Below are positions 5,001-61,160 of a DNA stretch of 64,000 bases, piece by piece. The position numbers and the translations under genes are program-made. Source of the stretch: Octopus vulgaris (Eukaryota); NCBI GenBank assembly GCA_951406725.2, contig OX597828.1:4650001-4714000 (forward strand). Direction: 5' to 3'. The notes under the pieces are model-generated. The model did no database searches. It saw nothing but the letters and a program-made list of their open reading frames with translations, and was not told the DNA's origin. Each line of letters begins with the position of its first letter. Positions within the stretch are counted from its first letter, which is position 1.

Positions 5001-5199
5001 TATATACGTAGATTTAGATGAAAATACACACACACACACTTACATACATACACACACACACACACATACATATATACATATATATATATATATATATATG
5101 TATGTGTGTGTGTGTATATATATATATATATATATATATATATATATATGAATAAATGAAAGAATGGAGTCGAACGAAGATGTTAACAAAATTCCTTTA

Positions 5200-5281
5200 C
5201 TCTCGACACATGTTTCGAAGACAGCATATTTTCGTTCCAAAGGAATAAAGGGTGCATTATGCAATCTTCTCATCAGGAAAG
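5200..5281 (-). ncRNA. Type I hammerhead ribozyme in PLE 3' region
   Basis: ctttc-CTGATGA-gaaga...tcttc-GAAA-catgt-GTC-gagag; stems I, II and a short III all pair. Confidence 0.8.
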
Positions 5282-5744
5282 AAAGGGACCCTCTCTCGAC
5301 AACAAGACAAACAAAAATTTTGATGATTGCCTACATGGCAAACAAAGCGATAATGAGTGTTTTTTTTTAAAAATCCGTTAGAAGAAACGACGTCAAAAAT
5401 GGATAGTAGGAGGAAATAATAATAGTTAGGGAACAGTATGTTTGTTGTATGTATGGAAATGTGTGGGTGTGTGCTTGTGTTAATGAGTGCGAGTGTTTGT
5501 GTGTGTGTATTTGTGTGTGTATAACTGCATTTGTGTCTGTGTGTATGATTGTGTGAGTGAGAGAGAGAGACATACGTCAAAGATAGATATTAGGAAGGGA
5601 AGGTATAAGGAATAATAGGTAGGGAACAAGTGGAGAGGAAAGTGTACGTTGATTGAAAGAATGTTCGAAGGCTTAGGAAAGAATTTCTCTATAGCAGTGG
5701 GGTGGACGTGAAGCTAATTGTTCAAACCACAGTGACTATCGTTG

Positions 5745-7620
5745 TCATTTATATGAGTAGAAAGTGTGTTTCTGCCAGTGTTTACATTTGTACGTTTTTT
5801 CTATGAGTGTGTTTACTAGGGGAACCTTAGCGAAAAGAATATGGAAGTGTTCAGAGTTACAAATGTTACAAAATCTCCTGCCCTTATCAAAAGGAAAGGA
5901 TACAGACAATATGAACCAACCTAACTTGAAAATTATATTGTTGTCTTTAAGACGCCAAACTAATTTACTTAGCCCTGTACTATGTCGTTATTTCCTATCC
6001 CTGAATGTTGAATAGTGGTTTGAAATTCTCTTGGATAACTGGGAAGTGGAGGCTCCTATATAGAAGAAAACATCGGTACCGGAAGTAATTCTACACTGGT
6101 AAATGGAATTCTTAATCTTAGAATTACTAGACAAAAATTTAATTCTGTTGGGGTTGTCCTCCGAGATTGAGACGAAGTTTTTATTGTTATGATTGTTGTT
6201 ACTATTATTATTAGCGCTAACACCTACACTATTTCTATTATTATTAGTATTATTAATGGTATTACAACCGACAATAATACCGTTATTGTTGTTACCATTG
6301 TTATTAACACGACTAATACTATTATTAATAATATCATTGTTAACAATTTCGCTGCTACTAATGCTGCTACTATTAATACTATTCCTATTATTATGATTGT
6401 ATGATGGGTTGGAATTAGCAAGATTAGTGTTAGAACTCCCGGGTGAAGAATCTTTGTCTAGCAGCTTGGTATTGTGGGAAGATATAATTTGTGAAAGATT
6501 CCTAGTGTTAGAGAAAGCTATTCTGACCTTGTGTGAATTGATAATAGAATGATATCTAGAATTTATGGGAAAGTTCCTAGCAACGGCTTCACGGAACTGT
6601 AAGGGAAGGTTCGATTTAATTTGTTTTCGGAAAGGTATTACAAACCAGATATAGTTTTTTGTGGCCTTTGAAATATTCTTAGTGTTGTTTGTGATAGTAA
6701 GGGGGAAATTTCTGGGTTGGAAATTTGGGGTTGCATGGCGCTTACCTCCCCTAGTCCGTAAAGAATTTATTTTATGTACAGGGTTGCTGGCACTATTCGA
6801 ATTGAAATCATTATTCCTATTTCGAGTAACTTTATTATCTGGAGAAGCAGATGTTGGTTTAGAATGAGCTGGGTCGATGTATGACACTTTCTCTTTATAA
6901 CCGGCTCTTGACAAGGCGGCGTTATAGAAGTCTGGCTTTTGGTTAAATATGTCGACATTAGCAGATAATTTAGACAGTGTCAGAGCTATGTTATTAACTA
7001 AATTATCGGTAATTGGCTTGGCATGATTACTGAAAATGCTGATATACTTAAGATTAGTGGAAGGTTTATGATAAGAGAAGTATGAGTTATTCTGCAGATT
7101 GAATGTAATGTCCAAGAAGTTGGCATTAGTTAATTCATCGTCAAAAACTATGCGCAAGCCCATTCTACTAAAAAACCTAACTAATCTGTTCTTAACCTTC
7201 TGTATTTTTTTGGTTCGAAACGTTTTGGAGGTAAAGCAGACAATCGTCGCGATACAGACCTCCACAGATGTCCGGGAATTGGTCGGCCATTTCATAAAGA
7301 ATATAAATTCCGACCAAATCGGCTATCTGGGCGCTGTCTGTACTTCCCATTAGTACATCAAACGCATTAGAGGTATCTCTACGGACTCACAACTTGCTAT
7401 CGAACTGGAGGAAAGATTTCCTAGCAGTCAATATCACACTAATTTCCTCCCTGGAGAGGCCTGCCTTATTGTGTGCGTGCCATAGGGCCTTATTAAGTAT
7501 AATAGGGTTGATTGAAGGATAGAAACTAGATATATCGAATTGGATAAATTTAGTGTTGGCCTTATCAGTAATAGAAGAAAACCAATCTACGACTTGAACA
7601 GAATTGGACCATAAGCTAAG
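5745..7620 (-). pseudogene. PLE reverse transcriptase + GIY-YIG endonuclease, disrupted
   Basis: FIQFDISSFYPSI, FDVLMGSTDSAQIADLVG, GLYRDD, ANFLDITF, SIYQC...FYIG...KRISNH; after the TAA at 5988-5990 the frame continues STGLSKLVWRLK...CNICNSE...CKH to TGA at 5745; frameshift near 7240. Confidence 0.9.
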
Positions 7621-60089: not shown

Positions 60090-60235
60090 GGATTTTTACA
60101 GGGCTTAAAAGCAATGAAGGGCCGCTGCAATAAGTGTTTGCCTGAGAGGTTAATACGTTGGATAAAATCATAATTTACTGATCCTCCTGGGTTTTCTTCT
60201 ACCCAACGTCTGGAACTTTTTCAGCAGCCCCTCGT
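60090..60235 (+). mobile_element. Mariner 3' end, same family as 44110
   Basis: TIR-like end ggaactttttcagcagcccctcgta. Confidence 0.65.
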
Positions 60236-60513
60236 AGTGCCTATTACGCACAAATCCTGTTTTCTGATTGGGTAAAAGTGATCAAGCTTTAAACTTCCGT
60301 AAAATTTTCTAAAATTTTTGTGGAATTAATGAATCACTAACTCGAATACAGCGTAAAAAATTAAATCATTAAAAAAATTTGAAACTTTTCACTTAATTTT
60401 AAAATTTCAAACTCTTTGACAGCAAATCAATAGATCTCTCTCTCTCTTTCTACACACACACACACACACACACACACACATATATATATATATATATATA
60501 TATATATATATAT

Positions 60514-61160
60514 AATTCAGAGAAGAATACAGTGTACGTTCAAACACAAAAGAGATACCGAAGAATAGGATATCTGACACGCTAGAAAGAGCAGTTAAAA
60601 CTCCAAGCCACCAAACTAAGAATTTTCCGATTAATATTCTTGCTAAGATTTTAATTAATGATAAAATGTTTTTTGGCTACTTCTGGAAGGAAATCGGCAA
60701 TTTATTTATTTAGTGCTGGTTGAGTTTCCGCATCTGCGCGGTCAATTCGAAAAACTAGAACCTATAGACACGTGGCAGGTTATTTATCGCTCCGTGCCTA
60801 TGTGTTCAGTCCTGGCAACCTACTGAAGAAGTAGCGTCAGATATAGACTGAAATTATCTTATTTCAGTCTGTATTTAAGTCTGCAGAAACCTTGCAGGGT
60901 CTAGGATTAAGGTAAATTTTTTTATTTTTCAATCACTTTCGGAATTACAACAATTGGTGGCTTGGAGTTTTAACTGCTCTTTCTAGCGAGTCAGATATCC
61001 TATTCTTCAGGTATCTCTTTTGTGTTTGAACGTACACCGTACACTGTATTCTTTTTTGTATAATATATAGTCTATTGACTAATTTTTTTCTTTCTTGCTA
61101 GACCACTGGTAACTAAGAATTTTTCGATGAATATTCTTGCTACCCCAAGATTTTAATTTA
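60514..61160. mobile_element. TA-embedded retrozyme-like element: inverted ~100-bp arm plus ~1.1 units of 497 bp
   Basis: Inverted repeat 60520-60613 / 60955-61052; direct repeat aactaagaatttt at 60614 and 61111. Confidence 0.8.
60817..60907 (+). ncRNA. Type I hammerhead ribozyme with extended stem II
   Basis: ccta-CTGAAGA-agtag...16-bp hairpin...ctgca-GAAA-ccttgcagg-GTC-tagg; first pair of stem II is mismatched. Confidence 0.75.

Follow-up and report, generated by a model that had tools for sequence, protein, structure and literature searches.

The 64,000-nucleotide stretch of Octopus vulgaris DNA analysed here (contig OX597828.1, positions 4,650,001 to 4,714,000; "the window") is 34% GC, is rich in (TA)n, and contains eight fold-back insertions in which a minus-sense left arm is joined to a plus-sense right arm of the same family. 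The window elements and their relatives in the genome suggest that such insertions arise when a Penelope enzyme introduces a nick into each strand of a (TA)n tract and the two strands then prime complementary DNA (cDNA) on a common RNA, one strand from a site A and its counterpart from a site B; we assign this reading, which rests on DNA sequence, a probability of about 0.6. The eight elements are one truncated Hydra-like Penelope-like element (PLE, at 5149; family F1), six copies of four predicted hammerhead retrozyme families (F2 at 7886 and 52633, F3 at 13668, F4 at 25063 and 53871, F6 at 60514), and one member of an unassigned family (F5, at 53313). The architecture itself is known; what is new is a set of quantitative constraints on the mechanism of PLE integration.

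Self-alignment of the window recovered all eight elements, and the arrangement reported in a preliminary description of this DNA, minus-sense on the left and plus-sense on the right, was present in every one of them. In seven of the eight, sense was set by a type I hammerhead, either of the element itself or of its family (at 5149 together with the reverse transcriptase-endonuclease frame); it is only assumed for the element at 53313 because that element has half a core (CTGATGA) alone. The preliminary description also stated that most halves overlap by 65-700 nt. This holds for seven elements, whose arms share 65 aligned nt at 100% identity (5149), 111 at 99% (7886), 365 at 80% (13662), 591 at 99% (25063), 154 at 96% (52633), 130 at 92% (53313), and 87 at 98% (60514), but not for 53871, where the 13 nt that align amount to no real overlap. 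The right edge of the element at 5149, previously placed at 7722, had to be moved: the arm extends from 7653 to 7870, the extra ~150 nt are family sequence abutting TA, and the 218 nt of the arm are found elsewhere at 97-99% identity.

Copies were sampled from the 2.8-Gb assembly (227 contigs). For F4, three samples were scored: an end-neutral sample of 40 loci out of the 150 listed of 233 full-monomer matches (40 of 1085 candidates), 40 regions flanking B-end matches listed for contig C1, and 18 A-end matches on C1, consisting of eight that lacked a listed B partner plus the 10 that followed in order. Forward-strand pattern matches numbered 276 for A and 610 for B, and the examined copies are a minority. 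The pooled samples comprised 100 elements, 27 single-armed and 73 two-armed, and all 73 two-armed copies were divergent, minus then plus (p about 1e-22 against 50:50). The same was true of F2 (18 of 26 copies two-armed, 18/18 divergent, after removal of four duplicate loci and one old fragment), F1 (21 of 31, 21/21 divergent), and F7, a related young family outside the window (14 of 17, 14/14 divergent). No convergent two-armed copy was found among the sampled members of these four families, and the comparison of convergent and divergent copies that had been proposed thus returned divergent copies only. This polarity is a known PLE feature and not new, as the preliminary description had itself remarked of inverted copies, and it has been described for PLEs in PMC3846280 and PMC8557442 (here and below, the papers cited are represented by the accessible parts of their text). 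A TA run of at least 8 nt lay within 8 nt of 163 of 167 F4 3' ends. In the window, the left flank of 13662 is (TATG)n and not (TA)n as described earlier.

The outer ends follow a stricter rule: site A terminates one arm, and site B, 100-155 nt beyond it, terminates the other. Of 170 F4 3' ends, 166 lay in one of two intervals counted from the ribozyme cut, 126-137 (A) or 231-241 (B), and 67 of the 70 two-armed F4 copies with both ends seen were A+B, with no A/A and no B/B. The end-neutral sample gave 27 A+B copies out of 27 (p = 7e-9 against a free 50:50 choice); the B-picked sample (n = 29) gave 28 A+B and one B with another end, with no B/B; and the A-picked sample (n = 14) gave 12 A+B and two A with another end, with no A/A. 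The rule was also followed by 13 of 13 F7 copies (A at 60-72, B at 219-229), 20 of 21 F1 copies (in a B-selected sample), 13 of 18 F2 copies, and, by eye, about eight F3 copies. Three nominally single-armed copies (L058, L183 and L200) have second arms of 9-18 nt with the opposite end type. Next to the 5' end of the main arm of L058, in its right flank (about 2740-2800), several repeats of a 12-nt piece of the B end alternate with (TA)n runs, which gives the impression of priming that was aborted and then restarted; short repeats similar to these occur at L062 and L043. The A ends of F4 match TA by 0-2 nt and are spread over 126-137. The self-complementarity of (TA)n had been put forward as the basis of the reaction; given this short match and the published homology-free internal initiation (PMC11167929), the need for it is not shown.

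The TA flanks and fixed outer ends of these insertions resemble those of Tc1/mariner miniature inverted-repeat transposable elements (MITEs). An origin as DNA transposons with fixed terminal inverted repeats, as two independent insertions in one TA tract, or as assembly fold-back artefacts would have that likeness in its favour, but we consider it extremely unlikely. The two ends are different sequences and not identical inverted repeats, the junctions are almost all unique to each copy, the arms are closer to each other than to other copies, the arms of old copies are only 80-92% identical, and elements encoding a reverse transcriptase (RT) share the layout. Because the inner junctions vary (among 73 in F4, only two pairs coincide to within 3 nt, and these lie next to the ribozyme cut), the arms are not fixed inverted repeats; fixed repeats were the outcome that the preliminary description had named as fatal to its interpretation. 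These three explanations were rejected on the variable junctions and the A+B ends.

The two arms of a copy carry the same variants. At 21 common polymorphic sites in 67 F4 copies, the arms disagreed in 9 of 688 comparisons against 301 expected from the pool, an expectation that is inflated by the mixing of subfamilies of different age, and in F2 they disagreed in 0 of 45 against 22 expected. Rare F4 alleles were shared by the two arms in 127 instances and confined to one of them in 83, and in L172, for instance, the arms differ by 0.3% while the nearest other copy differs by 3.8%. Because private variants are shared in this way, the separate templates suggested earlier are unlikely to have been drawn at random from the family pool. 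Strong gene conversion is also unlikely, because the arms of the old copy at 13662 are as diverged from each other (80% identity) as from their relatives (75-83%). Both strands could instead prime on two separate RNAs of the same sequence, supplied by a dominant source locus or circle lineage, with an asymmetric dimer that initiates at A on one RNA and at B on its partner. Such a scheme would explain the overlap without strand displacement, fits the A+B pairing and the non-nested arms described below, and agrees with arm lengths whose correlation is weak at best (rho 0.24, p = 0.055). However, each cell would have to express essentially one variant, yet variants within the family are many and 2-6% apart, and the joint stopping of the arms at the ribozyme cut is not predicted; we therefore regard this scheme as rather unlikely.

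The relation between the arms bears on whether one could be a copy of the other. Among 63 simple A+B copies of F4, one arm was nested in the other in 43 and neither was nested in 20, and in 13, including 25063 in the window, an arm was at least 50 nt too long to have been copied from the other; in three copies the arms had at most 4 positions in common. Since neither arm fits in the other, these 13 copies could not be made by self-priming or fold-back. In that scheme, hypothesised in PMC3846280 and PMC8557442, an antisense RNA or a first cDNA would fold on itself at a palindrome and serve as its own template, and an endonuclease would resolve the hairpin at two staggered positions. Fold-back accounts for the match between the arms and for a tail at a single end, the nested copies (43/63 in F4 and most in F2 and F7) are compatible with it, and perfect palindromes exist (L064, L144, L277). 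As a sole route it is contradicted by the 13 copies with an overlong arm, and it is further opposed by copies without arm overlap (L188, L280, and 53871 in the window), by the finding that either arm may be the longer (A in 24 of 63), and by the 49 of 58 junctions that are not symmetric. We consider it improbable. The earlier idea that both DNA strands prime and that the cDNAs are then joined is, in contrast, supported by the variable junctions and by these 13 copies.

In twin priming of L1 elements, reportedly described by Ostertag and Kazazian in 2001, primers on opposite strands give the same polarity as here, with non-overlapping arms that meet at the internal priming site. On a long linear multimer, the two arms could likewise copy different, non-overlapping monomers, so that their overlap would be only apparent. 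Besides the polarity, the existence of non-overlapping copies (53871, L161, L188, L280) and the lack of in-phase variants across arms (three cross-arm variants among 160, none in phase) agree with this possibility, which we nevertheless hold to be very doubtful. The arms share at least 50 monomer positions in 57 of 63 F4 copies, the B arms stop at the A site about as often as expected by chance (5 of 63, with 3.3 expected), and arms that both stop at the ribozyme cut require the same 5' stretch to have been copied twice. In addition, both starts are fixed internal sites and the second primer is not placed by chance homology, and two-armed copies are the majority (73 of 100 sampled), unlike in L1.

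The inner ends also record the ribozyme cut. Within 30 nt past the cut lay 26 of 139 F4 5' ends (p = 3e-7) and 11 of 44 in F2 (p = 1e-5). The accumulation was mainly in the first pass (17/106 against 107/2590); in later passes stops at the cut were not significantly raised (6/79 against 107/2590, p = 0.15). The two arms tended to stop there together: both did so in 6 copies and a single arm in 4, with 36 copies in which neither arm stopped there (p about 8e-5). Longer arms cross the cut, and A and B lie just downstream of it; a circle or an uncut precursor would therefore be needed for these arms. Variants among passes were mostly singletons (143, against 17 shared), and this result and the later-pass stops both lean towards a circle over a linear multimer, neither being decisive. 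A circular template is thus compatible with the data, while some copies look as if copied from a linear, ribozyme-cut RNA; short copies fit a linear cut RNA copied twice and long copies fit a circle. Tandem arrays of F4 reach 14 monomers. In the 8-monomer arm of L031 (G000:C4:123134098-123137749), a pair of monomers separated by five units has five variants in common, which suggests later unequal exchange or a multimeric template.

As for the joining of the arms, 36 of the 73 F4 junctions could be anchored, 14 of them clean and 22 with extra or mismatched bases. Microhomology of at least 3 nt was present in 7 of the 14 clean joints, against 6.5% under the null. In four sequencing runs aligned to L275, no joint across the element, representing an empty site, was seen among those listed. 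A search of sequencing runs listed no RNA data set with a match.

Under the preferred reading, priming by both strands on one RNA, the enzyme would nick both strands of a (TA)n tract, and one strand would start cDNA at A and the other at B on one RNA, either circular or ribozyme-cut. The two cDNAs would extend inward from opposite strands, so that the 3' ends would face outward, and each would stop at a variable point or run off the ribozyme-cut 5' end. A shared stretch would be copied twice, one cDNA displacing the other, and on a circle or uncut multimer either cDNA could run through several monomers. The cDNA ends would then be joined via microhomology or filler bases, and the PLE tail would correspond to the stretch between A and B. 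Speculatively, the missing A/A and B/B copies might be accounted for by a staggered dimeric enzyme. The different fixed outer ends, the variants common to both arms, and the non-nested arms all go beyond the preliminary description. No statement of a model with one start site per strand on one RNA was found in the literature searched, a search that did not extend to older subscription papers.

Several observations weigh against this reading. Five of the 18 F2 copies depart from the A/B rule (one A/A, one B/B that is a perfect palindrome, and three with another end), the old F6 copies are messy and their A/B pattern is noisy, and F5 breaks the rule, five of six inspected two-armed copies ending at the same TA-rich segment. 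The 43 nested F4 copies also fit fold-back, and near-symmetric junctions are in excess (9/58 against 3 in F4, 6/18 against 0.8 in F2), although annealing of two cDNA ends at palindromic sites would also yield such an excess. The AT-rich stretch past the cut could itself favour joining there, and extra or mismatched bases mark 22 of the 36 anchored junctions, some of them due to the use of one reference monomer. Gene conversion between arms or one dominant source locus per cell could also match the arms, in addition to the inflated expectation mentioned above. Furthermore, in vitro start-site use was the same for both strands, ribozyme cleavage was not required, and no reads started at the cut (PMC11167929).

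The in vitro work on the Poseidon element PAc (PMC11167929) also offers a close parallel that favours the reading, in that a PLE protein cut and extended both strands at AT-rich targets and used two internal start sites, downstream of the hammerhead, that bound the tail. That element belongs to a different clade, and its start sites were neither assigned to insertion ends nor linked to an inverted arm. Among PLEs, the head-to-head order of repeats was found to be the commonest, with a tail that may or may not be present, and was proposed to result from self-priming that uses an antisense template (PMC3846280). An inverted copy, a tail that is often restricted to one end, targeting of (TA)n, and the presence of Hydra and Naiad families in Octopus were reported in PMC8557442, where Hydra-1_Obim appears in File S1 and the origin of the tandem and inverted structures is called an open question. 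Our elements share with these PLEs the inverted, truncated head-to-head copy, the tail at one end, partial tandems, the hammerhead near the 3' end, and the (TA)n targets. They differ in a tail of about 55-155 nt instead of 30-40 nt, in an A+B pairing that is near-absolute in four families, and in that either arm may be long, and the inversion was explained there by self-priming or left open.

F1 and F7 are assigned by motifs, not by a tree, as probable Hydra-like PLEs. The F1 copy in the window is 5'-truncated and frameshifted, its coding region being split into four frames. F7 has a 3625-nt unit with many 899-amino-acid frames, and its ribozyme-to-tail region matches F1. A PLE-type RT, together with a GIY-YIG endonuclease at the C terminus, lies in one open reading frame, of 899 amino acids in F7 (L302) and 785 in F1 (L320), both with FD..S.Y.SI, YRDD, and AVY/SIY..YVG/YIG. 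A Pfam search gave no RT match for the F1 and F7 proteins, and RVT_1 was found in a minority of the Atlas neighbours of the PLE protein. F7 has RWL and DKT and the F1 copy in L320 has DKT, and among 102 aligned homologues RWK/R is present in 88 and DKT in 93. The endonuclease lacks CCHH and has CxxC and CxH near its end; the CxCX5C linker, present in 87 of the 102 aligned sequences, is missing in both families, which we call "Hydra-like" because of this loss. With the Hydra clade (PMC8557442) they share the C-terminal GIY-YIG without CCHH, the RW and DKT and the CxxC and CxH motifs, a canonical hammerhead, and the (TA)n preference; they differ in the replaced linker and in the 3.6-kb unit of F7. 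A long Asn/Ser-rich insert stands in place of the zinc-finger linker between RT and endonuclease (window 6170-6460 and the L302 and L320 proteins), reminiscent of the N-rich inserts that rotifer PLEs are reported to have (PMC3846280). F7 is very young, with many near-identical intact 899-amino-acid frames in tandem and inverted units (G000:C1:119516264-119524264, L301-L319, and many other places).

F2, F3, F4, and F6 are tandem repeats in which every unit has a type I hammerhead, its core and stems identified by eye, and we class them as putative non-LTR (long terminal repeat) retrozymes, their non-coding nature being stated without a systematic coding search. The monomers measure 588, ~417, 489, and 488 nt, respectively. 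Both F4 elements in the window have CTGACGA...GAAAC. The F2 monomer (L156) has the variant core CCGATGA rather than CTGATGA; F2 is a very young family, and its arms still end at the predicted cut. The F3 core is degenerate at 14352 in the window and intact in L248 and L252. Hammerheads were assigned from motif and stems because an Rfam search at E<=1 gave none among the 150 of 179 matches listed, which were miRNA-like and to palindromes and microsatellites. Minimum-energy folds recovered stem I only, in F4 only, and not the full ribozyme fold, F1 included, while circular folds of the retrozyme monomers were more stable than 20 shuffles. The monomers have no sequence match to the ends of F1 and F7, though the end architecture is alike, and a search for an autonomous partner of F2, F4, and F6 yielded none. 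Retrozymes have been described with PLEs as proposed partners (PMC7229834, PMC7761336, bioRxiv 10.64898/2026.07.22.740005), and the accessible text of these sources contains no mention of inverted arms. Like the animal non-LTR retrozymes of these sources, ours are non-coding tandem repeats of a few hundred nt with one type I hammerhead per monomer and low GC; unlike them, they have monomers of 417-588 nt, form mostly two-armed inverted insertions with PLE-type ends, and are known here from DNA alone. F5 is a 707-nt unit with CTGATGA and no downstream GAAA, and therefore lacks a complete hammerhead core; no RT frame was found in its upstream sequence. It is abundant and has an internal TA-rich segment (window 53313-53815 and 26723-26847; L224, L228). 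A half core is listed for Naiad elements in Octopus (PMC8557442), and F5 is possibly tied to these.

Table 1. Arms and ribozymes of the fold-back elements (window positions).
Feature	Position	Strand	Remarks
F1, 5'-truncated Hydra-like Penelope element	5150..7652	-	broken RT + GIY-YIG frame, 3' untranslated region, hammerhead; ends at site A beside (TA)n
F1 type I hammerhead	5200..5283	-	CTGATGA...GAAAC ATGT GTC, core at 5276; motif-based assignment
F1 second arm	7653..7870	+	starts ~10 nt before ribozyme cut, runs through site A, ends at site B (~150-nt tail)
F2 retrozyme, B arm	7882..8109	-	588-nt monomer
F2 retrozyme, A arm	8110..8220	+	99% identity to other arm
F3 old retrozyme, longer-tail arm	13662..14192	-	~417-nt period
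F3 shorter-end arm	14195..14563	+	degenerate hammerhead ~14352-14402
F4 retrozyme, A arm	25063..25820	-	489-nt monomer, 1.55 monomers
F4 B arm	25821..26513	+	1.4 monomers; 5' end 27 nt past ribozyme cut; neither arm nested in other
F4 type I hammerhead	26183..26290	+	CTGACGA...GAAAC GGTGCATC GTA
Old F2 subfamily, B arm	52631..52873	-	
Old F2 subfamily, A arm	52874..53183	+	
F5 left arm	53313..53446	-	707-nt tandem unit, half hammerhead core only
F5 right arm	53447..53815	+	same TA-rich terminal segment as left arm; breaks A/B rule
Old F4 copy, B arm	53870..53957	-	monomer 149-236
Old F4 copy, A arm	53958..54076	+	monomer 10-130; no overlap with B arm
F6 retrozyme, A arm	60514..60614	-	488-nt monomer
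F6 B arm	60615..61160	+	hammerhead ~60819-60906, core at 60823

Several families can be stacked in one (TA)n tract, with two elements at 5149-8220 and three at 52631-54076. Outside these families, the window contains an old 270-nt MITE-like element with inverted ends of ~70 nt and TA-like flanks (4738-5006), a degenerate palindrome rich in simple repeats with arms at 78% (31606-31839; related sequence in the flank of L218), and repeats with TA-rich tails resembling short interspersed nuclear elements (SINEs), which may be similar to octopus SINEs (26590-26720, 11372-11513, 21988-22221, 23775-23961, 32526-32742, and 48679-48904).

More tentatively, and with somewhat less than even confidence, we propose that normal Penelope integration is two-ended. 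A single dimer would hold one RNA, either a circle produced by the ribozyme or a cleaved monomer, at two programmed starting points, one for each nicked strand, and the RNA would be copied twice by strand displacement, so that pseudo-LTR, tail, and tandem arrays could all come from one step, and animal retrozymes would carry both sites in order to hijack it. Because the retrozymes bear the PLE integration signature, their mobilisation by PLEs is supported. The genome-scale footprints of young families separate models of how PLE structures are formed, and they tie the two start sites seen in vitro (PMC11167929) to the two ends of one insertion; F7 is a candidate protein source for the biochemistry.

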